Origin: an uncultured Candidatus Berkelbacteria bacterium
GTDB taxonomy: Bacteria > Patescibacteriota > UBA1384 > UBA12157
DNA length: 64,000 bases
Direction: 5' to 3'
Assembly (NCBI GenBank): GCA_903877885.1
Contig: CAIRFN010000013.1
Location: 2,754 to 66,753 of the forward strand
The position numbers and the translations under genes were made by a program. Shown here piece by piece: positions 797 to 63,123 of the stretch; the first letter of the stretch is position 1; each line of letters starts with the position of its first letter. The notes under the pieces were generated by a model, which was given only the letters and a program-made list of their open reading frames with translations, searched no databases and had not been told where the DNA came from.

Positions 797-1804
797 TTAC
801 TTAATTTTTGACTCTAAAAAGCGGCAGAATTCAGCAAGTCGGAATGAATAACCCATTTCGTTATCATACCAGGCTATCACCTTCACCAGATTACCACCGA
901 CGACTTGAGTTGACAAGAGGTCGACGATCGAACCATTCGGGTTCCCGCGAAAATCAACCGAGACAAGTGGTTCGTCGCAAACGGCTAAAGCGCCGTGCAT
1001 TTTTGGCTCTTCGGTCGCTTTAGTTAAAGCACCATTAACTTCTTCAATCGTCACATCTTTTTTAAGTAAAGCGACAAAATCTACCAGAGAAACTGTTGGT
1101 GTTGGCACGCGAAAGGAAACGCCGTCCATTTTGTCTTTAAGATCTGGAATAACTTGACATGTCGCTTTGGTTGCGCCAGTCGTGGTGGGAATAATTGATT
1201 GTAGAGCCGAACGCGCGCGGCGCGGATCTTTGTGCGGCGAATCTTGCAAAACCTGATCCATAGTAAAGGAGTGGATTGTACTCATCATCGCCTTTTCAAT
1301 ACCAAAAACATCGTTCAAAACTTTAGCCACTGGTGTTAAAGCATTGGTGGTGCAACTGGCCATCGACATAATATTGTCGGTTCCAGGATCGAAATTTTCT
1401 TCATTGACGCCCAAAACAAAAGTTTTAATTGCATCATCACCCTTGGCTGGCGCCGAAATTACCACATAGCGCGCTCCGGCTTCAAGATGCGCTGAAGCCT
1501 TTTCCTTTTCCGTAAAAACACCAGTTGATTCGATCACTAAATCCACATCTAAATCTTTCCATGGTAATTTAGTTGGATCTTTTTCCTGAAGAAATTTGAT
1601 CATTCGACCGTTAACCATTAAACCATCGTCAGTTGTTTCGATTTCACCATTAAATTCACCGTAAGTTGAATCATACTTGGCTAAATGAGCCAAAGTTTCC
1701 AGTTCGCCTAAATCGTTAATTGCTACGATTTCCAAGCGTGCTTGAGTCGCAGCCCTGAAAAAACACCGACCAATTCGACCAAAACCATTGATTGCAATCT
1801 TCAT
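797..1804 (-). CDS. gap: glyceraldehyde-3-phosphate dehydrogenase
   Basis: N-term INGFGRIGR Rossmann motif; catalytic SCTTN motif; full length 335 aa. Confidence 0.93.
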   Translation of the reverse strand: MKIAINGFGRIGRCFFRAATQARLEIVAINDLGELETLAHLAKYDSTYGEFNGEIETTDDGLMVNGRMIKFLQEKDPTKLPWKDLDVDLVIESTGVFTEKEKASAHLEAGARYVVISAPAKGDDAIKTFVLGVNEENFDPGTDNIMSMASCTTNALTPVAKVLNDVFGIEKAMMSTIHSFTMDQVLQDSPHKDPRRARSALQSIIPTTTGATKATCQVIPDLKDKMDGVSFRVPTPTVSLVDFVALLKKDVTIEEVNGALTKATEEPKMHGALAVCDEPLVSVDFRGNPNGSIVDLLSTQVVGGNLVKVIAWYDNEMGYSFRLAEFCRFLESKIK

Positions 1805-1824
1805 CTTGATACCTCCTGTTAATA

Positions 1825-2814
1825 TTAACTAAACTTCATACCGCTATCTGACCAGCGGTGCTCTTTTATTCTATGTTTAATTGTGGCTAAATTCAACAAG
1901 CCTTCCTGAGCGCCAACTTTTTCAATAACCGAAGCGGAATTAGTCACACCATATTGCAAGCAAGTTAGCAATTTTTCACCTTTAATATACGCGGCCATAA
2001 AAGCCGAAGTAAAAGCATCGCCCGCACCAGTTGATTCAACCCGATGGCCCGGATAAGGTCCGATTTTAATAAAATCGGTGGCCGTTGCGGCGTAGGCGCC
2101 TTCTTTACCATCAGTAATCACAATAATTTCCACGCCAGTTTTCTTCAAGACTTTGGCAATATCACGGACATTAGCAACCCCATGAAGACCGGCCAATTTC
2201 TGGCCTTCTTCTTTGTTAACAAATAAGATTTTAGCCACGCGCAAAAGTCCACCAAAAGCTAACATTCCGTCATGAATCTGAACCGAACCAGGATTAATAG
2301 CAATTTTAATATTTTTTTCGGCTGCCAGCGCTGTCATTCGACTGTAAAATGATTTGTAGCCTTCGCCCATGGGACCCAAAAATACCCAATCAGTGGCAAT
2401 ACTTCGAGTTAAAACTAATTCATCGGGATGAAAGCTATGAAAAACCAGAATCGACCGCTCGCCTTCATAAGAAATAATCACGGAAAAACTGGTTTTTTTA
2501 TCTTTTCGAATAATTAAATGCGACGTATCGACACGAGCTTTTTCCAAAGTTTTAATAATACCTTCACCTTCACTGTCATGACCAATCGCGCTAATAATAC
2601 TGGTTTTTAAACCTAATTTTGAAGATCCAATCGCCACATTGCCAGCCGTGCCGCCAATGTCATAATGAATATCAGAAATACTGATTTTGTCGCCATGTTC
2701 GAAAACTAAAAATTTCTCGCCATGACGATTCAGCGGTTTTTCCATTTCCGAAACCGAGGGAAAAACAAAAATATCTTTCATAATATCGCCAATTGTAACC
2801 AAATCGTATTTCAT
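1825..2814 (-). CDS. PfkB-family carbohydrate kinase (ribokinase-like)
   Basis: GGTAGNVA N-terminal motif and GAGDAF C-terminal PfkB signature. Confidence 0.8.
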   Translation of the reverse strand: MKYDLVTIGDIMKDIFVFPSVSEMEKPLNRHGEKFLVFEHGDKISISDIHYDIGGTAGNVAIGSSKLGLKTSIISAIGHDSEGEGIIKTLEKARVDTSHLIIRKDKKTSFSVIISYEGERSILVFHSFHPDELVLTRSIATDWVFLGPMGEGYKSFYSRMTALAAEKNIKIAINPGSVQIHDGMLAFGGLLRVAKILFVNKEEGQKLAGLHGVANVRDIAKVLKKTGVEIIVITDGKEGAYAATATDFIKIGPYPGHRVESTGAGDAFTSAFMAAYIKGEKLLTCLQYGVTNSASVIEKVGAQEGLLNLATIKHRIKEHRWSDSGMKFS

Positions 2815-2845
2815 ATCTTCTCCGACTAGGAATTTGGTGGTTAAG

Positions 2846-2914
2846 TTTTTGTGTGCCCGGTGACCCGAATGGCAATTCGAGTCTAGGCTGGCTAGGGCGG
2901 GCGTAACACAAAAA
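2846..2914. repeat. MITE-like repeat copy (TGTCATYC family internal core) bounded by inverted repeat tttttgtgtgcccg / cgggcgtaacacaaaaa
   Basis: Internal ccgaatggcaattcga matches the 58231-58323 copy (ccgaatggtaattcga in reverse complement); flanking 14-nt inverted repeat. Confidence 0.4.
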
Positions 2915-2934
2915 TTTAAGCACCAGATTCCGTT

Positions 2935-3759
2935 TTAACCTTTTCCATCACTGCCAAACAACTTAATTTTTTCTTCAACCACAGCTTGAATATCGGCCAT
3001 CACTTTAGCCATAATATCGCGCGGATCAGATAAATCGGCATATTTCTTGTTGATGCCGTGAATTGTTTCGGAAAAAGTGTGACGAATATCGGTATCAATA
3101 TTAACCTTGCAAATACCAGCGGCAACAGCTTTTCTAACTTCTTCATCAGGTACGCCGCTGGCGCCATGCAAAACCAAAGGCGTATTGGTTAATTTACGAA
3201 TTTTTTTAAGCAAATCAATGTTTAAAGCTTTGATTTTAGTCGCATGACGCGAGCCAATCGAAACAGCCAAGGAATCAACCTTGGTTTTTTTCAAATAATC
3301 TTTAACTAAACTCGGATCAGTAAAATCGGATTCATTTTTTGAGTTGCCAATTGTACCAAGTTCGCCTTCGCAAAAGATTTTCTTGCGATGTGCCATTTCT
3401 ACCGCTTTAGCAGTTAAAATTTCGTTTTCCGGCAAAGTAAGGTTACTGCCATCAAACATCACCGAGGTGAAACCTTCTTCCAGACATTCATGAACAAGTT
3501 TTAAGTTTCGGCCGTGATCCAAATGTAGTACAATCGGAACCTTGGCATGTTTAGCTTCATTTTTGACAATATCGGCCAGGTTTTCTAAACCGGCATAGGC
3601 AATCGCTTTTTCGGAAATTTGAATAATCGCCGGCGCGTTTAGTTTAACTGCCGCCGCAATTATCGCCCTGGTAATTTCTAGATCGGAAGTATTAAAAGCG
3701 CCGACCGCGTAATGACCCTTTTGAGCTTTTTCAAATAATTGTTTGCTAGTGGTAAGCAT
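2935..3759 (-). CDS. fba: class II fructose/tagatose-bisphosphate aldolase
   Basis: LHLDHG motif, GASG, class II aldolase length; adjacent to tpiA. Confidence 0.85.
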   Translation of the reverse strand: MLTTSKQLFEKAQKGHYAVGAFNTSDLEITRAIIAAAVKLNAPAIIQISEKAIAYAGLENLADIVKNEAKHAKVPIVLHLDHGRNLKLVHECLEEGFTSVMFDGSNLTLPENEILTAKAVEMAHRKKIFCEGELGTIGNSKNESDFTDPSLVKDYLKKTKVDSLAVSIGSRHATKIKALNIDLLKKIRKLTNTPLVLHGASGVPDEEVRKAVAAGICKVNIDTDIRHTFSETIHGINKKYADLSDPRDIMAKVMADIQAVVEEKIKLFGSDGKG

Positions 3760-6924: not shown

Positions 6925-7676
6925 AACCAAATTACTGACTTCGTAGGTTAGTAATTTGGTTAAACAAATAAATGCTTTTTAATTATTGCTAAATCTTTTT
7001 GATCATTAATTCGACTACTAACAAATTTTTGATATTGTTTTGGTTGAATATCCATCAGACTATTAAAATCGCAAAATGATATAACGTCTTTTCCTAGATA
7101 CTCATCATATGAAGAAAAGCTCCAATCCTCCGGCTCTTTAACCAGTCCGGCTGTTACTGGATTAAGATGTTGATATCTCGTCAAATGCAGTAATTGTTCG
7201 TCACTTTCAACTAAAACATTTTTAAATCTTCCTTCCCATAACGGACCTTTGCGACAATGTTTAGTATTAAAGTATCGAGTATAGCCATTAAGGATATCGG
7301 CAACATATTTTGAAACACCATTTTCTTTTAGTTGTTTTAAAACTAAATGGATATGAGTCGGCATAATACAATAAGCAATTATATGTACTAACTTTTCACG
7401 ATCTTTTGAAATTGTAAATAAGGCATTATCAAAACCAAATTGACCGACTAATCTTGATCTCATAAAAGCCGACAAGCTCAAATCATTTTTAATCTGATAA
7501 TATCTAATAAGGTCGATCATCCGCACATATTCTTCATCATTATTAAAAATTTTGTAACCAGCGATGCTTTTCGTGCAAATATGATAGACTTGATCATTAA
7601 CCAAAAAATCTTTTCTCATATTTGAATTATATCATTACTAAACCCAAATTACTAACCTACGAAGTTAGTAATTTGG
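6925..7676 (-). mobile_element. REPtron-like unit: RAYT (IS200-like Y1 transposase) gene flanked by inverted REP hairpins
   Basis: Hairpins aaccaaattactgac-ttcgtagg-ttagtaatttggtt (6925-6961) and cccaaattactaac-ctacgaag-ttagtaatttgg (7643-7676) are inverted copies flanking the transposase ORF. Confidence 0.65.
6960..7619 (-). CDS. REP-associated tyrosine transposase (IS200/IS605 TnpA-like, Y1 HUH family), copy 1
   Basis: HUH motif HIHLVL; catalytic-Tyr region LTRYQHLNP; paralogous to 21600-22271 and 41462-42133. Confidence 0.8.
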   Translation of the reverse strand: MRKDFLVNDQVYHICTKSIAGYKIFNNDEEYVRMIDLIRYYQIKNDLSLSAFMRSRLVGQFGFDNALFTISKDREKLVHIIAYCIMPTHIHLVLKQLKENGVSKYVADILNGYTRYFNTKHCRKGPLWEGRFKNVLVESDEQLLHLTRYQHLNPVTAGLVKEPEDWSFSSYDEYLGKDVISFCDFNSLMDIQPKQYQKFVSSRINDQKDLAIIKKHLFV

Positions 7677-13631: not shown

Positions 13632-13700
13632 TTGACATCAAGAGAGAGAGAGTAAATTTAAGGTGGAAGGGATCACCTTTCTAAAATTAAATAAGAGGAG
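13632..13700 (+). promoter_or_regulatory. promoter/leader of paralog A: TTGACA, (AG)6 repeat, TAAATT, conserved leader hairpin AAGGTGgaagggatCACCTT, AGAGGAGG RBS
   Basis: About 85% identical to 29609-29688 except for (AG)n repeat number. Confidence 0.5.
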
Positions 13701-13707
13701 GCAAACC

Positions 13708-14472
13708 ATGTCAGACGAAACTTTACAACCGGAAGATGTAGAAAATTTTGTAGCACAAACTAATAATGCGCAAGCAATAGAAACAACAGAGAAAGTTAGA
13801 ACTAGAGAATCAGAGATTCAAACCAATATTGATTTCTGGAAAAACTTGGCATTAGAAGGTATAGAAGTTAATGAAAATGAAATTCGAGCCGCTATTGAAG
13901 TCCTACCAGAAGTCGAAGGGTTTGACTGGTATATCGCCATTCCTGAAGGTGTCAAAACGTCCGAGGTTTGGCAAAAAGTAATCACGCGTTATCCCAACGA
14001 TCCGTCTTTAAATGAATTAAATGGTCTAAAATTGCCACGCGAAACCAAAGAAACCTTTGCTGTGGCTGCCAGGTACAGCAAAAAACCAGACGCTGTCCGC
14101 GAAGAAGGACTAGTCAAATCAGCCAAGGATTGGGAGCGATCAATGTCGGTCTATGAGTCTCCAAATTGGGAAATAGCTGAACACACCTACATGTCTCCCT
14201 TGGAAAGAGTAGTGGCAGAACTGCGCTGGAACGCTGAAAACGGCACTCATTTAGATGAAGGAGATGAGATCACTTTTTGTCCCGGGTCCCGGACAACTGA
14301 CGGTCGTGTCCTTGGCATGCACTTTAACACCTTATATAACAATTGCACCTTCAATAGTTATGATCCTTCCACTAAAAAATGGAATTTAAGAGTCCGCCAG
14401 GTCGTAACTAAAGACACTAAAGTTGAATCAAATACTAATTTCTTTGAACAACGGCCATATCCTACAAAATAG
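13708..14472 (+). CDS. hypothetical protein, paralog A of duplicated family (start MSDETLQPE)
   Basis: N-terminal ~60 aa nearly identical to the 29689 ORF; conserved motifs FDW.IAIP.G, AARYS, C.GSRT.DG, TKDTK; no known domain recognised. Confidence 0.6.
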   Translation: MSDETLQPEDVENFVAQTNNAQAIETTEKVRTRESEIQTNIDFWKNLALEGIEVNENEIRAAIEVLPEVEGFDWYIAIPEGVKTSEVWQKVITRYPNDPSLNELNGLKLPRETKETFAVAARYSKKPDAVREEGLVKSAKDWERSMSVYESPNWEIAEHTYMSPLERVVAELRWNAENGTHLDEGDEITFCPGSRTTDGRVLGMHFNTLYNNCTFNSYDPSTKKWNLRVRQVVTKDTKVESNTNFFEQRPYPTK

Positions 14473-14580: not shown

Positions 14581-14657
14581 TTGAAATGATTTTATAGATT
14601 GCCACGCTTCCCGCCCGCCGGCGGATCGCTCGCAATGACAAAAAAATTATTTTTCTA

Positions 14658-14742
14658 ACCTGTCACAGCCCACTTCGGAAGTGGGCTATATGGTTAAAGT
14701 TTAGTCCGTTACCACCTGGGAGGTGGCAACATATGGTTAGAG
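14658..14742. repeat. REP doublet (agcccacttcggaagtgggct-atatggtta ; ccacctgggaggtgg-caacatatggtta)
   Basis: Two GC-rich hairpins each followed by ATATGGTTA; whole ~85-nt unit repeated at 30566-30651. Confidence 0.65.
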
Positions 14743-14744
14743 AA

Positions 14745-14779
14745 AAAATCTAATCAAAAAGGCTACCCAAGGGCAGCCC
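14745..14779 (-). terminator. terminator of small acidic-protein gene
   Basis: gggctgcccttgggtagcc hairpin followed by T-run on minus strand. Confidence 0.5.
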
Positions 14780-19590: not shown

Positions 19591-20670
19591 ATGAATCAAG
19601 ATCGTTTGGAAAAAATTATTGAAAAATATCGTGAACTCGAGCAAAAATCGCTCGACCCGGCTTTGATGAGCAATCAAAATGAGTTTTTAAAACTGTTGAA
19701 AGAAAAAAATGAGATTGAGCCAGCCGCCAAAACGGCCGAACGATATTTGAATTTAACTAAAAATTTAGCCGAAGCCGAAGAAATTTCTCTTGATGAAACA
19801 GCGGACGAGGAAATGAAAGAAATGGCTTTGAGTGAGATGGAAACGATCAAAAATGAATTGGTTGAAGCCGAAAATGAATTAAAGGTGGCGCTTTTACCAA
19901 CCGATCCGAATGACAAGAAAAACGTTATCATTGAGATTCGGCCAGCCGCCGGCGGCGATGAGGCCGAGCTTTTTGCCCAAGAACTTTTTCGGATGTATTC
20001 AAGATACGCCGAAGCTATGGGCTGGCGCGTCGAAGTAATGGATTCGCAAACCAGCGCTCTTGGTGGCATCAAAAGCTTAACTTTTCGCATTATTGGTAAC
20101 GATGTTTACGGCAAAATGAAATATGAATCTGGCGTTCACCGTGTTCAACGGGTTCCAGAAACCGAAAAAGCCGGTCGCATTCACACTTCGACTGTGACCG
20201 TGGCAGTTTTAGCTGAAGCCGAAGAAGCCGACGTCGAAGTTAAAAATGAAGATTTGCGAATCGATACTTTTTGTTCCGGCGGCGCCGGCGGTCAGTCGGT
20301 TAATACGACTTATTCGGCCGTTCGAATTACTCATATTCCGACCGGATTGGTTGTCAGCTGCCAAGATGAACGTTCGCAACTTAAAAATCGCCTGAAAGCG
20401 ATGAGTATTTTACGTAGCCGACTCTTAGCCGCGCGTGAAGAAAAATTGGCTCAAGAGCGCGGCGATGTTCGTCGCGATCAAATCGGCACAGGAGACAGAT
20501 CGGAAAAAATTCGAACCTACAACTTTCCACAAGACAGGATTACCGACCATCGCATCAACCAATCTTGGCATAATATTTATAATATTTTGGAAGGCAATTT
20601 AAATCCGGTGATCTCTGCTTTAACTCAAGAAGATCAAGCTCGAAAATTAGCCACTGAAACAGAAGCATGA
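19591..20670 (+). CDS. prfA: peptide chain release factor 1
   Basis: GGQ motif ([12 protein letters not shown]), RF1-type PxT tripeptide (PET), followed by prmC. Confidence 0.93.
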
Positions 20671-21551
20671 AGCAGGAATTAAAAATCAAGGATTTATATC
20701 GCGAGATAGTATCCGAACTAAAATCAAAGGAGATTAGTACTCCAGAACTCGATGCTCGAGTTATAATTTGCTATGCGCTGAAAATGACAGACGCGGATTT
20801 TTTTAAAACAGATAACGATCTAATTTCAAATTATCAGGCTGACAAGATTATAAAACTGGTTAGGGAGCGAGTAAAAAATATTCCCGTGGCCTATATTTTA
20901 GGTCAAAAAGAATTTTATGGCCTTAATTTTTATGTTAATAAAAATGTTTTAATCCCCCGCCCAGAGTCGGAATGGTTGGTTGAAGAAGCAGTAAAATATA
21001 TTAAAACCCAAAAAAGAAAAATCGCGATTTTGGATCTGGGAACCGGTAGCGGCAATATCATTATTTCGATTTACAAAAGTTTAATGATTGGCAATTGGCA
21101 ATTTGGCGTTAAGTTTCATGCTTCGGATATTAGTTCAAAAGCTTTATTTATAGCTAAAAAGAATGCGAAAAAATATAAGCTTGATAAAAAAATCAAATTA
21201 TTTCATTCCGATCTGTTTTCTAACTGGCGATTGCAGAAAAAATTTGATTTAATCGTGGCCAATTTGCCGTACGTACCGAAAAACAATGAACCGTTAACTG
21301 TTTACCGTTCACCGATCTCATTTGAGCCACAAAATGCCATTTTTGCATCAGATAACGGCGCGGAAATTATTAAAAAGTTCTTGGTTCAAGCCAAAAATTA
21401 TTTAAATAACAATGGTTTAATTTTAATCGAACTCGATCCGCGAAACGCGGCTGATCTTAAGGAATTTACTCAATCGAACTTCCCTAACACCAAAATCCAG
21501 CTCGAAAAAGATTTAGCTGGATTTGAACGCTACCTTATAATTAGAATCTAA
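20667..21551 (+). CDS. prmC: release factor glutamine N5-methyltransferase PrmC/HemK
   Basis: SAM-binding LDLGTGSG; substrate motif reads NLPY instead of the usual NPPY; 4-nt overlap with prfA. Confidence 0.85.
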
Positions 21552-22343
21552 CACTGTACGGCGACCTCGGAGGTAGGCGAACGGTGTTAGACAAATATTT
21601 TAACCCGAATAGTTATCTATCATCATATTCTTTATAACAGAGATTTGTTTCTGATAAGATTTACGATCATTAACAAATTTTCGATATTGTTCAGAAGTAA
21701 AATCAAATAAGCCGTCGAATTGACATAAATTAGCACTATCAATTTTCAAATATTCCAGATAGGAAGAATGGAGCCAATCCTCTGGCTTCTGAACTAAACC
21801 AGCCGAAGAAGCATTAAGATGAAAATATCGTGTTAAATGCAATAACTGATTATCTGTTGAAACTTCCACATCTTTAAATTTACTCTCCCATAGAGGCCCG
21901 GACCGATGATGCTTGGAATTGAAATATCTTGTATAACTATTTAAAACTCTGGACATGAACTTAGAAATTCCTTGGTCGGCGACTTGTTTCAATATTAAAT
22001 GAATGTGAGTTGGCATAATTGTATATGCGATAATTTCAACTAGAACTTGGCTGTTTAATTGAACATTCTGGATTATTTTTTGTTGCAAAAAGGGATTTAG
22101 ATCAGAAAATTTAGAATAACAATAATTGAAATCTATGTATCGATAAAGCTTTAATAGTTCCTTTATTCTTGAAAAATCTTGCGGATCATTAAAAATAGTA
22201 TACTTTGCAATACTACGACTAAAAACATGATAATAATGTCCATTTGCTAATGGATATTTTCGTATATTCATTTATTTAATCATACCATAAGATAATAAAA
22301 TTAACACTGTACGCCTACCTCGGAGGTCGTCGTATAGTGTTAG
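21550..22343 (-). mobile_element. REPtron-like unit 2: RAYT gene flanked by REP hairpins aacactgtacg...tcggagg...cgaacggtgtta
   Basis: Imperfect palindromes at 21550-21589 and 22301-22343 with TCGGAGG loops flank the ORF. Confidence 0.6.
21600..22271 (-). CDS. REP-associated tyrosine transposase (IS200-like Y1), copy 2
   Basis: HIHLIL HUH motif; LTRYFHLN Tyr motif; N-term MNIRKYPLANGHYYHVFSRS like copy 3. Confidence 0.8.
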   Translation of the reverse strand: MNIRKYPLANGHYYHVFSRSIAKYTIFNDPQDFSRIKELLKLYRYIDFNYCYSKFSDLNPFLQQKIIQNVQLNSQVLVEIIAYTIMPTHIHLILKQVADQGISKFMSRVLNSYTRYFNSKHHRSGPLWESKFKDVEVSTDNQLLHLTRYFHLNASSAGLVQKPEDWLHSSYLEYLKIDSANLCQFDGLFDFTSEQYRKFVNDRKSYQKQISVIKNMMIDNYSG

Positions 22344-22365
22344 CATAAATATATATAATTAAATT

Positions 22366-22428
22366 ACCAAAATCCAGCTCGAAAAAGATTTAGCTGGGCT
22401 TGAACGATATTTGATAATTAAGAACTAG
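22366..22428 (+). repeat. divergent duplicate of the last 63 nt of prmC (orphan 3' gene end)
   Basis: First 32 nt identical to 21489-21520, remainder ~65% identical; still encodes ...LEKDLAGLERYLIIKN* in frame. Confidence 0.6.
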
Positions 22429-23345
22429 TTCAGAATTTGCTTTAAAGAAACATCATCAACGTAGACTGAACCAGCCGAATTAGGTGAGAAGAAATGAAAA
22501 TTTACCAACGTTGTAGTAGAAGAAGTTGTAAATGGGAAACTAACTAATGTATAAGTTGTACCTGCAACGTTAGTACTTGTTCGATCTAAAGAAGGTGGAA
22601 TATTAGTTCCCGAACCAATTGTATTGTCTGAAACTTGATAATAACCATTCTTACTACCATCTCCTCGTGTCCAAAAAGTTAAAAGATATTTTGTGCTCGG
22701 TGAAACAGTTATTCTTGGCGAAATATCAACATATGATTGACCAGATGTATAGGTTAATTTAGCGGCATTTACACCACTATGAACCGGCGATGTTATATTT
22801 TCGATCAATCCAGAGCCTTTTTGTTCCGACCAATTATTAGCCCAAACATCATCCCCACCTGCGCCTAAAGTTTCAAAGCTTGGATTTGGAATTAATTCTG
22901 GGCCATAAATTGGCACTTGAGCGATCAAGGATACTGTCCCATTAGAATCAAATACAAAACTTTGCGGATTACTGGTACCAATAGTGGTTGGTAGATCAGC
23001 CAAAACTTGGTAAGTCCCGTCAGTTTGAACCGAAATCACCAAAGCGCTACCTTGATTTTTGATATCAGAAGCAATTGATTGGATTTTAGTAATATCGTCA
23101 GAACCAGAGGGATTGGGCAAAGACTCGCATGAACCAGCACAGTTTAAAACTAATGGATTAATTCCGTTATCCAAGGCAATCTGAACCTCATTTCTTGCTT
23201 GGCCTAAATCGCTTTGGACTCGAGCATCTTTGGCTTTAGCCCGTGCGGAATTTAAGGCTACCAAAACCATAGCCGCTAAAATGCCAATAATAGCGATAAC
23301 GACTAATAGTTCGATTAAAGTGAAGGCTGAAAGTTTTTTATTCAT
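22425..23345 (-). CDS. type IV pilin-like protein with C-terminal carbohydrate-binding-like beta domain
   Basis: Prepilin N-terminus FTLIELLVVIAIIGILAAMVL; paralogous to 55752-56675 in the pilin domain. Confidence 0.6.
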   Translation of the reverse strand: MNKKLSAFTLIELLVVIAIIGILAAMVLVALNSARAKAKDARVQSDLGQARNEVQIALDNGINPLVLNCAGSCESLPNPSGSDDITKIQSIASDIKNQGSALVISVQTDGTYQVLADLPTTIGTSNPQSFVFDSNGTVSLIAQVPIYGPELIPNPSFETLGAGGDDVWANNWSEQKGSGLIENITSPVHSGVNAAKLTYTSGQSYVDISPRITVSPSTKYLLTFWTRGDGSKNGYYQVSDNTIGSGTNIPPSLDRTSTNVAGTTYTLVSFPFTTSSTTTLVNFHFFSPNSAGSVYVDDVSLKQILN

Positions 23346-23391: not shown

Positions 23392-23907
23392 TTATTCGCT
23401 ACAACTTAAAGATTTAATCGTTGCGATATCCGGACCACCCCATATTCCATCTGATCCATTAGCGAAATGTCCATAATTTGTCACATCAGAAAAAATCGGG
23501 AAATAACCCACAGGTAGATATGTATCTGAAAATCTTAATGTTACGCGACGAGTAACATTAGTATGATCGTTGCAAGAAGGAACTCCACTAGCACACCAGT
23601 TATCCCAATCATAAACCATATTGGCACAAGGTGGAGTTGGTAATGTAGTTGAAATAGGTAAAGAACCTCGAAAATTTTGCGATCGTAATTCATGAGGCAT
23701 AACCCCCGGATTAGTGTCATCAGGCCAGACATCTTTTTCCGCCTGATAATTACTGGCCGCCGCCGCGATCGTTTGCATATCAACCAAGGCTTTACTGTAC
23801 CGCGCGCGATCTTTGGCTGAATTAAGAGCAACTAAAACCACACCAATCAAAATACCGATGATAGCGATAGCCACCAAGAGCTCAATAATAGTAAATGCTT
23901 TTTTCAT
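23392..23907 (-). CDS. prepilin-type N-terminal cleavage/methylation domain protein
   Basis: KKAFTIIELLVAIAIIGIL N-terminus. Confidence 0.6.
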   Translation of the reverse strand: MKKAFTIIELLVAIAIIGILIGVVLVALNSAKDRARYSKALVDMQTIAAAASNYQAEKDVWPDDTNPGVMPHELRSQNFRGSLPISTTLPTPPCANMVYDWDNWCASGVPSCNDHTNVTRRVTLRFSDTYLPVGYFPIFSDVTNYGHFANGSDGIWGGPDIATIKSLSCSE

Positions 23908-29608: not shown

Positions 29609-29688
29609 TTGATTTCGAGAGAGAGAGAGAGAGAGTAAATTTAAAGTGGAAGGGATCACCTTTCTAAAATTAAATAAGGAGGCAAATC
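29609..29688 (+). promoter_or_regulatory. promoter/leader of paralog B: TTGATT, (AG)9 repeat, TAAATT, conserved leader hairpin, AAGGAGG RBS
   Basis: Homologous to 13632-13700 but with 3 more AG units; an extra TTGACA lies at 29598. Confidence 0.5.
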
Positions 29689-30501
29689 ATGTCAGATGAA
29701 ACTTTACAACCAGAAGCTGCTGAAGATTTTGTGGCAACGATTAATAATGTGCAAGATGTAGAAACAACAGAGAAAGTTAGAACCAAGGAATCAGAAATTC
29801 AAGCCAATATTGATTTTTGGAAAATTAATGGTAAAAAATATTTTGGTATTGAGATTGATGAACAGGAAATAAGAAATGCAATTGAATCATTGCCAGAAAA
29901 AGAAGGTTTTGATTGGTTAATTGCTATACCTAAAGGGTTAAAATTATCTGATGTATCTATGAATAAATGGTCGCACGATTATACTATTTACGATCCAATC
30001 AATGACGCAAATCCAGAAAAAAGGCAAGCCCACAGGGATTTAATTGATGCTATTCAAATGCCACGCAATGCACAGGAAACTTATGCCATCGCCGCTCGTT
30101 ATAGTGCCGAACCAGATGATGGAAGCTATGAACATGATTATATGGGCAAAAATCATAAAAGCAGTTTAGAATGGGAACAGACAGGTAAAGCATTTATGTC
30201 TCCTATGGAATGGATAATTGCTGATATGCGCTTTAATGTCAATACTGATATGCGTTTTGATCTTAAGACCGATAACCACCTAGATACTGCTCACAGACTT
30301 CCTCTTGTTGTTCACAATAGTACACTTTGTGCTGGTTCAAGAACACCTGATGGCAAAGTACCTTATGTGAGTTGGAGCCAGTTAGGTGCCGGAGGACTTA
30401 GCTTTAATACTCTAAAACCAGAAAATAAGATTTTTTCAGATATTGGTGTTCGCGAAGTAATAACTAAAGATACTAAAACTGAAGCAGAACAAACTGAATA
30501 A
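29689..30501 (+). CDS. hypothetical protein, paralog B of duplicated family
   Basis: N-terminus and several internal motifs shared with the 13708-14472 ORF. Confidence 0.6.
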   Translation: MSDETLQPEAAEDFVATINNVQDVETTEKVRTKESEIQANIDFWKINGKKYFGIEIDEQEIRNAIESLPEKEGFDWLIAIPKGLKLSDVSMNKWSHDYTIYDPINDANPEKRQAHRDLIDAIQMPRNAQETYAIAARYSAEPDDGSYEHDYMGKNHKSSLEWEQTGKAFMSPMEWIIADMRFNVNTDMRFDLKTDNHLDTAHRLPLVVHNSTLCAGSRTPDGKVPYVSWSQLGAGGLSFNTLKPENKIFSDIGVREVITKDTKTEAEQTE

Positions 30502-30565: not shown

Positions 30566-30651
30566 AACCTGTCACGGCCCACTTCCAGGGTGGGATATAT
30601 GGTTAAAATTTACCAAGTTACCACCTTGGAGGTGGTAACATATGGTTAGAA
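30566..30651. repeat. REP doublet (cccacttccagggtggg-atatatggtta ; gttaccaccttggaggtggtaac-atatggtta)
   Basis: Homologous to 14658-14742; the second hairpin is identical to the one inside mnmA. Confidence 0.65.
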
Positions 30652-30701
30652 AACAAGCTAAACCCGCCTGCCGGTAGACAGGACTTGATCTACGGAAAAT
30701 T

Positions 30702-41367: not shown

Positions 41368-41423
41368 CTCATCATTTTAAACAAAAAGAAATATCACACG
41401 CTAGCGCCACAAAGAAATTTTCT

Positions 41424-42182
41424 AACCATATAGCGTACACCCTGGAAGTGTACATTGAGGTTTAGCCGGAGTAATTATCAATCAAAATATTTTTGATTAG
41501 CGCCAAATCGCGTTGATATGATTTTTGGTCAAGAACAAACTTCTTGTATCTTTTTGGCGACATATCAATGATTTCTTTAAATAAGCAAATCGGATTATTC
41601 ACTTCCTCGCAAAATTCTTTTAGAGAAGAAAAAGGCCAATCAAACGGATTATCAACCAAACCAGCTGAACTCGGATTTAGGTGCACATAGCGTGTTGAGT
41701 GTAATAATTGATTATCATTTTCAATTAAAACATTCCTGAAATGTCCTTCCCATAATGGACCGTTTCGATGATGTTTTAAGTTAAAATATCTAGTATAACT
41801 ATTTAAAATTTTACCGATATATTTTGAAATTCCATCATCTTTTTTCTGCTTTAAAATAAGATGAAAATGCGTCGGCATAATACAATAAGCCACAATTTCG
41901 ACCAAAACATCGTTATTCTTTTTTAGGCTATTTAAAATAGCCGTTTGAGCCATCATCTCCAGTTCTTTAAACCTTGAGTACTTATGATTAAATTCCGCAA
42001 AACGGTACATATCCAAGAGTTCTAAAATCCTATAATAATCATCGTCATCATTAAAAATCTGATATTTAGCGATACTCCGACTAAAGATATGATAATATTG
42101 GTCGGTTGCTAAAGGCGTTTTTCTAATATTCATAAGTCGATTATACCACAATGTACACCCCGGGGGTGTACATTGGTTTAAC
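41424..42182 (-). mobile_element. REPtron-like unit 3: RAYT gene flanked by inverted REPs (aaccatatagc-gtacaccctggaagtgtac-attgaggttt / aatgtacaccccgggggtgtacatt-ggtttaac)
   Basis: GTACAC/GTGTAC stems in inverted orientation on both sides of the ORF. Confidence 0.65.
41462..42133 (-). CDS. REP-associated tyrosine transposase (IS200-like Y1), copy 3
   Basis: HFHLIL HUH motif, STRYVHLNP Tyr motif; start set at MNIRKTPLA (42133) because the upstream ORF extension is encoded by the REP hairpin. Confidence 0.8.
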   Translation of the reverse strand: MNIRKTPLATDQYYHIFSRSIAKYQIFNDDDDYYRILELLDMYRFAEFNHKYSRFKELEMMAQTAILNSLKKNNDVLVEIVAYCIMPTHFHLILKQKKDDGISKYIGKILNSYTRYFNLKHHRNGPLWEGHFRNVLIENDNQLLHSTRYVHLNPSSAGLVDNPFDWPFSSLKEFCEEVNNPICLFKEIIDMSPKRYKKFVLDQKSYQRDLALIKNILIDNYSG

Positions 42183-42200
42183 AATCATTAAATCTCCAAC

Positions 42201-43917: not shown

Positions 43918-43985
43918 AATTAATTAATGCAGAATGCAGAATTGAATAATTTTTTTTAATTCTGAATTATGAATTCTGAATTATC
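43918..43985. repeat. AT-rich repeat block: aattaattaatgcagaatgcagaattgaataa (inverted copy at 58130-58161) plus tandem aattctgaattatg x2
   Basis: ~30 of 32 nt reverse-complement identity with 58130-58161; 14-nt tandem repeat. Confidence 0.5.
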
Positions 43986-51975: not shown

Positions 51976-52007
51976 TAATTTATTATACCAAATAAATATT
52001 AACCCTC

Positions 52008-52040
52008 AAAGTACACCCCGGGGGTGTACTTTGGTTTAAA
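52008..52040. repeat. REP hairpin aaagtacaccccgggggtgtacttt-ggtttaa
   Basis: Same family as the right REP of RAYT3 (42150-42182). Confidence 0.6.
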
Positions 52041-52066
52041 AAGATATTTTGTGCTAGAATAATTGT

Positions 52067-55751: not shown

Positions 55752-56675
55752 TTATCCTCCAGAAGCTAGGGTTTTAATTTCTTCATCAGTTAAAACTCGA
55801 TTATAGACTCGAACGTCGTCAACTGTGCCAGTAAAACTTCCACTATCTTTAACAATCGAAAAAACACCAGCTAAATTAGCTGTAAAATTAGCGCTTGTTT
55901 TACTAATAAAATTTCCATCAAGATACAAACTAATGTTATTACCATTTTTAATCCCGACTACGCAGTGCCAGTTTCCGTCAGTATATGAAGTTGAAGTTTC
56001 CACGGTTGCACTAGCCGTGCCGAATTTATCGCGGACAAAATAAGAAACTTTACCATTATCTAACGAAATTTGATCAGCTGTACTATCGGAATTTAATCCA
56101 TTTAAACCAAATAAAATCAGAGAACTGTTACTTTGACTAGTTTTAAACCGACCGGAAATAGTTAGCGGTTCGGCCGCTACATTTTCAGAACCAATAATAT
56201 TAATTAGTTTGTTATTATCTATTTTCCACCAAGAAATCAGGCCAGCATATAAAGTCGTGGTAAAACTAGTACCGTCCGACTTTACTACAAAAGATTGAGT
56301 ATTATTTGTTGACGGCAACGTCGTATACGCCTGATAAGTGCCATCAGAATTAGTCATAATAGTCAAATCACTACCTTGAGCTTTGATGTCCGCGGCTACA
56401 AGGTTCAATTTAACCAAAACATCGGTTGAGTTTGAAAAATTATCGCAGTGGATTGATATGATTGGCGAACAATTTAAATTACTAGCAGGATTAGCATCTA
56501 AATAAGTTTTGACTAAATTTTTTATCTGACTTAGATCATTTTTAATTCGGGCGTCTTTGGCTTTAGTTTTACTAGAATTTATAAACACTAAAACCATCAC
56601 CGCCAAAATGCCGATGATAGCTATAGCAACCAAGAGTTCAATCAGTGTGAAACCGTGATTAGATTTTTTAAACAT
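55752..56675 (-). CDS. type IV pilin-like protein with C-terminal concanavalin-A-like (LamG) domain
   Basis: GFTLIELLVAIAIIGILA prepilin N-terminus; C-terminal ...GNWHCVVG...LYLDG...DDVRVYNRVLTDEEI LamG-like. Confidence 0.6.
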   Translation of the reverse strand: MFKKSNHGFTLIELLVAIAIIGILAVMVLVFINSSKTKAKDARIKNDLSQIKNLVKTYLDANPASNLNCSPIISIHCDNFSNSTDVLVKLNLVAADIKAQGSDLTIMTNSDGTYQAYTTLPSTNNTQSFVVKSDGTSFTTTLYAGLISWWKIDNNKLINIIGSENVAAEPLTISGRFKTSQSNSSLILFGLNGLNSDSTADQISLDNGKVSYFVRDKFGTASATVETSTSYTDGNWHCVVGIKNGNNISLYLDGNFISKTSANFTANLAGVFSIVKDSGSFTGTVDDVRVYNRVLTDEEIKTLASGG

Positions 56676-58088: not shown

Positions 58089-58129
58089 ATGGCTCCTTAA
58101 TTTAATAATTCAGAATTTTTTAAATTATT

Positions 58130-58161
58130 TTATTTAATTCTGCATTCTGCATTAATTAATT
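58130..58161. repeat. AT-rich repeat ttatttaattctgcattctgcattaattaatt (inverted copy of 43918-43949)
   Basis: Reverse-complement near-identity over ~32 nt. Confidence 0.5.
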
Positions 58162-58913: not shown

Positions 58914-58940
58914 TTTTCTCCTTTTTTTAATTAATATTTT

Positions 58941-58985
58941 AACCTTATAATGTACACCCTGGAAGTGTACGTTGGTTTTAATTAC
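58941..58985. repeat. REP hairpin aaccttataa-tgtacaccctggaagtgtac-gttggttttaa
   Basis: Near-identical to the left REP of RAYT3 (41424-41467). Confidence 0.6.
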
Positions 58986-62694: not shown

Positions 62695-63123
62695 CTACGG
62701 GCAGGAAGTTTGAGTCGACGAAACAGAATTGACTTCTTCTCCAGAACCGTTATAATCAGCGCAAAAAACTTTTTTAGTATCTGGTAAAGTCGCATAAATT
62801 ACGTATGTAGTATCGGTTGTATTTTCATTTATTTTTGAACCGGATTTTTGAACATCGCTTAAAATAGTTTTAGCAGTGGGATCAGTTTCAAAACCTTTAT
62901 ATGTTGAATGCTGACTATTATAATTCTCGGCTACATTCCGCATTTGGCTCACATCGCTCATGATGCGAGCGTCAGTGGCTTTACCGCGAGCGGAGCTCAA
63001 AGATACTAAAACCATAGCCGCTATAATACCAATTGGCACAATCATGACTAAAAGTACAACAATAACGATAAGCCACCAAGGAATTTTTGATTTTGGTTTA
63101 GCTTGAACTGGCTGTGGCTCCAT
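62695..63123 (-). CDS. pilin-like protein (N-terminal hydrophobic helix + pilin helix, no canonical G-F/TLIE cleavage motif)
   Basis: IAAMVLVSLSSARGKATDARIMSDVSQMR resembles the conserved pilin alpha1 region of the other pilin-like genes. Confidence 0.45.
   Translation of the reverse strand: MEPQPVQAKPKSKIPWWLIVIVVLLVMIVPIGIIAAMVLVSLSSARGKATDARIMSDVSQMRNVAENYNSQHSTYKGFETDPTAKTILSDVQKSGSKINENTTDTTYVIYATLPDTKKVFCADYNGSGEEVNSVSSTQTSCP

Follow-up and report, generated by a model that had tools for sequence, protein, structure and literature searches.

A RAYT-REP unit between two copies of the prmC 3' end in an uncultured Candidatus Berkelbacteria bacterium: a candidate case of terminal displacement

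Introduction

How the end of a housekeeping gene came to stand on both sides of a transposase-like gene is the question raised by a locus in a 64,000-nucleotide (nt) stretch of contig CAIRFN010000013.1, which was assembled from an uncultured Candidatus Berkelbacteria bacterium and is analyzed here over its whole length of 64 kb (the window). In this locus prmC, which encodes the release-factor glutamine methyltransferase, is followed by RAYT2, a gene for a REP-associated tyrosine transposase (RAYT) placed between two repetitive extragenic palindromes (REPs), and then by a second, orphaned copy of the 3' end of prmC. The preliminary description of the locus, made from the sequence alone, had proposed that an integrating element brought in a replacement gene end and displaced the original. 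In this work the two copies, the unit between them and the flanks of related RAYT loci were analyzed. The explanation which we favor, with a probability of roughly 0.55, is a terminal displacement in which a foreign RAYT-REP unit, together with the prmC 3' end of its donor, recombined into the resident prmC. With 38.6% guanine plus cytosine (GC) the window is AT-rich, and its proteins match those of Candidatus Berkelbacteria and other Patescibacteria.

Results

The prmC 3' end is present in two copies

The prmC gene (20667-21551, plus strand) is intact, encodes 294 amino acids (aa) with the Pfam PrmC_N and methyltransferase domains, and has a C-terminus conforming to the family pattern KDLAG[FL]xRYL. 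Its final 63 nt (21489-21551) recur in register at 22366-22428, as a direct repeat with a spacing of 877 nt. A self-comparison of the whole window recovered this pair, already reported in the preliminary description, with E = 3e-13; it is also the sole short-range direct repeat in the 64 kb that does not involve REPs. The first 32 positions, which we call the core, are identical between 21489-21520 (copy 1, prmC coding sequence) and 22366-22397 (copy 2), both on the plus strand, and positions 33 to 63 match at 21 of 31 (68%, close to the 65% first estimated). All 10 mismatches fall within the last 31 of the 63 positions (P = 3.5e-4), which bears out the clustered, non-uniform divergence that had been described. 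Reading of both copies showed, again as proposed, that each continues in frame to a stop codon at an equal position; these are the working 3' end of prmC (21521-21551, plus strand, ending ..FERYLIIRI) and the orphan 3' end (22398-22428, plus strand, ending ..LERYLIIKN). Since the orphan has no start codon and is preceded two codons upstream by an in-frame TAA (22360-22362), it does not represent an ordinary open reading frame (ORF) or gene.

The nature of the differences is informative about the history of the two ends. The 10 of 31 nt which differ fall into eight codons, five of them synonymous or stop-to-stop and three non-synonymous (F/L, R/K and I/N, working copy first), the latter all being conservative replacements. 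In simulations, 10 random substitutions yielded so few non-synonymous codons in 0.24% of cases (P = 0.0024). Both peptide ends agree with the family pattern as seen in 120 homologues, and that of the orphan resembles prmC relatives, e.g., KDLAGLNRYLIIKN in P0086. This synonymous bias and the lack of any disabling change suggest that the copies were under purifying selection and diverged as working gene ends in separate lineages; the alternative gene end was probably acquired laterally rather than evolved in place.

As to which of the two is the original, the orphan TAG (22426-22428) and the stop codon of a convergent type IV pilin-like gene (22425-22427, minus strand) overlap in the palindrome CTAG, and the base after CTAG belongs to the last codon of the pilin-like gene. 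Because such a tight convergent overlap resembles an undisturbed native junction, it is the orphan that has the appearance of the original end. The stop codon of the working copy is, by contrast, supplied by a REP, in that the left REP begins with the TAA of prmC (21549-21551); the junction of the working end (B') with this REP reads GGATTTGAACGCTACCTTATAATTAGAATCTAACACTGTACG. The working prmC end appears from these junctions to be an imported replacement, and the orphan the displaced resident end. Exact look-ups of the prmC, RAYT and pilin-like proteins, together with the prmC 90% cluster, gave no empty site or alternative allele, and all contigs had the same arrangement.

It should also be noted that the core and the first 4 nt of the working end (21493-21524) contain a 10-bp hairpin (AAATCCAGCT/AGCTGGATTT; dG -9.9 kcal/mol, z -4.4). 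The two copies begin to diverge within the 3' arm of this hairpin, of which the orphan copy retains 6 bp only. No hairpin like that of the window core was seen in the duplicated segments of the other cases described below.

The unit between the copies

Rightwards from the prmC stop codon the order is REP, RAYT gene, REP, a 22-nt spacer, the orphan and the convergent pilin-like gene. The left REP (21549-21590; TAACACTGTACG..CCTCGGAGG..GTGTTAG) is a palindromic hairpin of 42 nt (dG -15.4 kcal/mol, z -6.5), and the right REP hairpin (22302-22343) is 83% identical to it as a direct repeat and 88% as an inverted repeat. The REPs on both sides of RAYT2 gave four pattern matches where none were expected by chance and their hairpins are stable; within the 64 kb this type of REP is found at these two flanks only. 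RAYT2 (21600-22271, minus strand) encodes a REP-associated tyrosine transposase-like Y1 HUH protein of 223 aa, with a Pfam Y1_Tnp match of 33.7 bits (cutoff 23) and, as its best NCBIfam match, REP_Tyr_transpos at 60.6 bits, which is under the equivalog cutoff of 80 for that model. The residues H89, H91 and Y149, corresponding to the HUH motif and the catalytic Tyr, are invariant in an alignment of 28 sequences. This is the only ORF of at least 40 aa between the repeats, and no tyrosine or serine integrase is encoded there.

Between the right REP and the orphan lies the AT-rich 22-nt spacer (22344-22365; CATAAATATATATAATTAAATT), which is unlike the sequence upstream of 21489; its right edge (22365/22366) constitutes the non-homologous junction. 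The pilin-like gene (22425-23345, minus strand; N_methyl motif and CBM_4_9) is the native right-hand neighbour, and on the other side the 3' end of prfA (19591-20670) overlaps the start of prmC. Searches around the locus found no known RNA families and no tRNAs, and base composition showed no clear boundary of an imported tract (prmC 34% GC, the unit 31%, prfA 44%). The REP repeat seemed to continue into the final 12 nt of prmC (21537-21598 against 22292-22352, 81%), but this was judged to be chance similarity of AT-rich sequence.

Recurrence at other RAYT loci

The flanks of RAYT loci in genomes of the candidate phyla radiation (CPR) were screened for repeats at both the DNA and the protein level. 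More than 1000 loci were detected, and the screen covered 80 loci of species-representative genomes, a further 80 of metagenomic origin and a few found via exact protein look-ups. The same anatomy was identified in six further events at five of these approximately 160 loci (numbered with the prefix L). The screen was limited to RAYT loci, and seven events among about 160 loci make up a small sample. At L089/L090 the 3' end of a sugar transferase gene is repeated over 45 nt (42 nt coding plus flanking bases), the 4 nt which differ are all synonymous (4/4), and both copies read RTLGVVLKGRGAY followed by a stop. At L131 the repeat covers at least 72 nt of the 3' end of a gene whose protein ends ..LIFRKDIWQKK, with 2 nt differing, both synonymous or stop-to-stop, and the working copy retains its own terminator hairpin ahead of the REP. 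The 63-nt repeat at L110/L109, from the 3' end of a gene of 549 aa with a weak acyltransferase-like match, differs at 18 nt (seven synonymous and five non-synonymous codons), and the 54-nt repeat at L157, from the 3' end of an alanine racemase gene, at 15 nt (eight synonymous and four non-synonymous codons); the longest identical run between the copies is 12 nt at L110 and 7 nt at L157.

The remaining two events are both at L167 and involve the 5' start of a UvrD-like helicase gene. Orphan 1 (2364-2400, 37 nt) has four synonymous and no non-synonymous codon differences, and orphan 0 (1608-1688, 81 nt), derived from the same start, has six synonymous and one non-synonymous. A 197-aa gene separates orphan 0 from orphan 1, which is followed by the RAYT unit and the working helicase start at 3234; the array (1608-3270) has three distinct alleles of the helicase start, and this layout appears to record two successive displacements. 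The first of the displaced segments holds the unrelated 197-aa gene and no RAYT. The older orphan lies 4 nt past the stop codon of the upstream gene, and the orphan starts are in the native position, after a promoter-like box.

When all seven events are pooled there are 36 synonymous and 13 non-synonymous codon differences, with zero frameshifts or premature stops, where random substitutions in these sequences would be expected to give 18-29% synonymous changes; the P values of the individual cases range from 0.05 down to below 1e-5. With lengths of 804-960 nt the inserted units are small and have the RAYT at their centre, and the window, L110 and L157 share a common layout of a gene stop abutting a REP, an antisense RAYT, a second REP, a spacer of 22-52 nt and the orphan. 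The distances from REP to junction vary from 0 to 63 nt on the gene side and from 15 to 80 nt on the orphan side, and neither the junction sequences nor the direction of the RAYT with respect to the gene is constant among cases. No conserved cleavage motif, fixed distance or common hairpin was seen across the junctions of the seven events. A 72-nt direct repeat at L057 (2356-2427 and 3687-3758), about 80% identical, with a GCAATTGCGGGAATTGC hairpin and bracketing a 162-aa ORF and a RAYT, was not counted as a displacement, having no Rfam match and no clear coding assignment.

These results divide the original proposal in two. The idea of a replacement end that displaced the original is strengthened by the native CTAG junction, the synonymous bias and the recurrence at five other loci. 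A dedicated integrating element with the 32-nt core as its attachment site is a different matter: relatives of the unit are located elsewhere, two of the cases have no identical core, and one of the L167 events has no RAYT. None of the approximately 160 RAYT loci had prmC within 2.5-3 kb, and the closest relatives were in unrelated contexts. A prmC-specific integrating element is not supported by these sequence comparisons.

Other RAYTs and REPs in the window and the family

The window encodes three RAYTs (RAYT1, 6960-7619; RAYT2, 21600-22271; and RAYT3, 41465-42133), which are 47-57% mutually identical. Each has its own distinct pair of REP hairpins, and the gene-end repeat occurs at RAYT2 alone. 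Like the RAYT2-type REPs, those of the RAYT1 type are confined in the window to their own flanks; the RAYT3-type REP flanks its gene (41416-41457 and 42140-42184) and is present in the window in two further copies (51998-52042 and 58933-58974). The REP-RAYT-REP arrangement was found in nearly all of the approximately 160 related loci, which are mostly intergenic. The closest homologues of RAYT2 (62-65% identical) adjoin a spermine synthase gene, a sugar transferase, NUDIX/enolase genes and a tRNA-like sequence. The last of these (..gctaccggggaataaa) is found in the left flanks of both L088 and L176/L177, whose RAYTs are 65% and 63% identical to RAYT2, and this common neighbour suggests that RAYT units can persist at an orthologous site across related genomes. 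No RAYT relatives were found on viral contigs. Two contigs of about 900 nt (P0127 and P0185) were considered as repeat-bounded units and rejected, being ordinary REP-flanked loci.

In the region upstream of RAYT2 (22272-22301, minus strand) there is a TG-extended -10-like box, TGGTATGAT (22279-22287, minus strand), about 7 nt before the ATG, and similar TGGTATAAT-type boxes precede RAYT1, RAYT3 and the RAYTs of L088 and L089. The box may act as a promoter. As these -10-like boxes (TGGTATAAT or TGGTATGAT) are located only about 7-9 nt ahead of the RAYT ATG, their spacing suggests that RAYT transcripts are leaderless or near-leaderless. Promoter and terminator scans at the locus gave no signal above chance. 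At L089, L110 and L157 the REP begins 0-7 nt past the stop codon, comparable to the window, where the prmC stop is inside the REP; REPs so near a stop codon could have an effect on termination or mRNA stability.

The 197-aa protein seen at L167 is encoded within 1 kb of a RAYT in six of the approximately 160 loci (L167, 1769-2362; L106, 700-1287; L010, 2343-2930; L127, 1884-2411; L104, 3303-3764; and L021, 3763-4280), and in four of these six the gene is directly upstream of the RAYT on the same strand. It had no match in Pfam, NCBIfam or PADLOC. At L106 the 197-aa gene is itself flanked by REP-like hairpins, and the L106 and L167 copies of this gene show 88% nucleotide identity, with their RAYTs being 64% identical only.

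Elsewhere in the window, two collinear direct repeats of 323 and 97 nt (13641-13957 against 29624-29943, and 14657-14753 against 30566-30661), 79-84% identical and about 16 kb apart, probably represent paralogous genes. An N-terminal segment composed of a pilin leader and a transmembrane segment recurs at 23199-23324, 23831-23886, 56547-56651 and 62944-63033, indicating that multiple type IV pilin-like proteins are encoded in the window. There is in addition a 60-nt inverted repeat (43918-43973 against 58102-58161), 83% identical and 14 kb apart.

Discussion

In the terminal displacement that we propose, foreign DNA bearing a RAYT, its two REP hairpins and the adjoining 3' end of a donor prmC would have entered the cell. 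The join on the gene side would have been homologous and in frame, located in the 32-nt core or at its right edge, and would have left prmC intact, ending in the last 10 codons of the donor, with the REP providing the stop. The far join (22365/22366) would have been non-homologous and placed 63 nt before the resident stop codon, so that the resident end persists as an orphan which is not translated but remains joined to its native neighbour. Both joins could be made by host recombination acting on DNA that had been taken up, with a homologous anchor in the gene and an illegitimate far junction. General recombination is at least as likely as RAYT catalysis, and in our view more likely, to be the joining mechanism: there is no identical core at L110 and L157, the spacers, junctions and orientation vary, one L167 event has no RAYT, and no circle or empty site was recovered, all of which fits ordinary uptake and recombination better than it fits catalysis by the RAYT. 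The anatomy, its recurrence, the native junction of the orphan and the bias towards synonymous differences are seen directly in the sequences; the lateral origin of the working end, the identity of the resident copy and the enzymes involved in the joining we infer.

Several observations weigh against this explanation. A donor which is about 32% divergent in the last 31 nt should differ in the preceding 32 nt too, and the perfect identity of the core, which would need a crossover at the core edge, a joint duplication of resident sequence, or later gene conversion, is poorly explained by the model that we favor. Homologous recombination is moreover inefficient with donors so divergent, and this applies to L110 and L157 as well. 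The far junctions showed neither microhomology nor a conserved motif. Among prmC homologues the nearest has 55% identity, which is too distant for a comparison of nucleotides, and the prmC 90% cluster contains the ..FERYLIIRI form only. Unfortunately, no element-free close relative and no donor was found, so that we infer the direction of transfer. Finally, the screen covered RAYT loci only, so that a link specific to RAYTs is tentative, and one of the L167 events has no RAYT in its inserted piece.

The identity of the core would be better accounted for by an alternative that we nevertheless regard as unlikely, a Campbell-type integration. Here the RAYT would have excised a single-stranded circle composed of REP-RAYT-REP and, through a non-canonical cleavage, about 63 nt of the prmC end of a prior host, and this circle would have integrated by a single crossover in the common 32-nt core, with the captured gene end serving as an attachment site that travels with the unit. 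Such a crossover would give exactly the observed combination of an identical core and divergent arms, the inserted units are small (804-960 nt) and RAYT-centred, and the hairpin of the working copy spans the core edge. Enzymes of the IS200/IS605 family are known to make single-stranded circles. The displacement model put forward for rhs loci likewise invokes circular intermediates (PMC2935791). However, L110 and L157 have the same architecture with identical stretches of at most 12 and 7 nt, the junction sequences, REP distances (0-63 and 15-80 nt) and RAYT orientation vary between events, one displacement at L167 took place without a RAYT, and no circle junction or empty site was recovered. 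The broader proposition that RAYT-REP units of the CPR are horizontally mobile cassettes, entering new genomes at housekeeping gene ends, using a captured gene end as portable homology and with a RAYT-made single-stranded circle as their possible vehicle, we hold to be similarly doubtful. If it were true, this would be a homology-guided mode of integration for an HUH transposase, in which the target gene is kept intact and the displaced ends are left as footprints.

If the roles of the two ends were reversed, the orphan would be a foreign passenger, the cassette would have been inserted just past the native prmC stop and the working end would be native. For an integration by crossover inside the core the two readings are symmetrical, and there is weak support from the nearest relative of the L089 sugar transferase (L175, 79% aa identity, with no RAYT and a different downstream gene), which agrees with the L089 working copy at two of the four variable third positions, the other two being uninformative. 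We nonetheless consider this reversal improbable: the last bases of the orphan are also the stop and last sense codon of the pilin-like gene, which a passenger would have to match by chance, the orphan starts at L167 are natively placed after the upstream gene and a promoter-like box, and the stop of the working copy is made by the REP.

A still poorer candidate, to which we give very little credence, is duplication in place, whereby 63 nt of target were duplicated, either as a very long target-site duplication or as a local tandem duplication, and the unused copy then drifted. The repeat does directly flank a transposase gene in the manner of a target duplication, but repeat lengths range from 37 to 81 nt among the cases, the mismatches are clustered (P = 3.5e-4), and the ratio of 36 synonymous to 13 non-synonymous differences, with no frameshift or nonsense change, departs from the 18-29% synonymous changes expected from drift. 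Elements of the IS200/IS605 type, in addition, make no target duplication. An assembly artefact, that is a chimeric join of two strains at the common 32-mer, might be suspected from the metagenomic source and from the k=31 unitigs which break at the 32-nt repeat, but it is hardly credible given that the same arrangement, with 0-2 differences over 2.5-10.7 kb, was found in k=141 contigs of several samples and in the output of other assemblers, that the k=31 unitigs L006 and L007 contain the spacer-core junction, and that no alternative allele is present in the samples. No strain variation was seen inside the repeats, as the 0-2 positions at which contigs differ are all outside them. Samples containing this genome include ERR4193360, ERR4193247 and ERR4197941.

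Terminal displacement thus being the reading that we retain, a minority of RAYT-REP units would bear the footprint of having entered with a foreign version of the adjacent gene end, as opposed to the picture of RAYTs as immobile. If this is true, it provides a concrete route for the lateral spread of RAYTs in the ultra-small genomes of the CPR. Terminal displacement would also extend beyond toxin loci to core genes, with prmC and alr as examples, and to 5' starts. A short orphan gene end with synonymous-only differences would then be a signature of recent, recombination-mediated gene flow in uncultured bacteria.

Comparison with known systems

The unit resembles both the RAYT/REP and the IS200/IS605 systems in that it encodes a Y1 HUH protein which has the HUH motif and the catalytic Tyr and whose gene lies between its own REP palindromes, and the extra dispersed REP copies of the RAYT3 type in the window may be a further likeness to RAYT/REP systems. 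Classical RAYTs are single-copy, vertically inherited, and usually described as domesticated and immobile, and movement together with flanking gene ends is not known for them. The window, by contrast, carries three divergent RAYTs in 64 kb, which are therefore not single-copy, and a minority of the family is bracketed by duplicated gene ends. IS200/IS605 elements insert 3' of a fixed target of 4-5 nt without duplicating or replacing target sequence. Our analysis agrees with the preliminary description that the behaviour of this locus is unlike that of canonical IS200/IS605 elements, as a homologous repeat of 63 nt brackets the unit and there is no common junction motif in the seven events. End-bypass capture by IS91/ISCR elements and Helitrons is similar in that an HUH element carries a short piece of a neighbouring host gene. 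Those elements, however, use Y2 or Rep-helicase enzymes and capture at one defined end, whereas here no defined end or cleavage motif was recognised and the side of the captured piece, left end or right end, differs from case to case.

Integrative islands and prophages in the 3' ends of genes or tRNAs share with this locus a core that is identical at the two junctions, a replacement end that has diverged, and the displaced original beyond the element. They encode, however, a tyrosine or serine site-specific integrase and keep to one target gene across relatives, whereas a Y1 HUH homologue is here the sole gene, the relatives are located at many genes, and some cases have no identical core.

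In logic the proposed displacement matches the C-terminal displacement of rhs, CdiA and type VI secretion system (T6SS) effector genes, where a lateral gene end joins via a common core and the old end remains as an untranslated downstream orphan which keeps a piece of that core. For rhs the proposed mechanism is recombination with circular intermediates (PMC2935791), and for T6SS effectors the displacement has been attributed to homology-facilitated illegitimate recombination (PMC5361080). Repeated events at rhs-type loci give arrays of orphans, comparable to L167, the window having a single orphan. The ends exchanged at rhs-type loci are toxin domains with immunity genes, are hundreds of codons long and mutually non-homologous, and their benefit is toxin diversity. 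In the cases reported here, 11-27 codons of a housekeeping gene (prmC, alr, a helicase or a sugar transferase) were exchanged, these ends are orthologous to those which they replaced, the cargo is a RAYT-REP unit, and 5' starts are displaced as well as 3' ends. While the displacement logic itself is already known from rhs, terminal displacement of housekeeping genes, affecting 5' as well as 3' ends and bringing in a RAYT-REP unit as its cargo, would be new.

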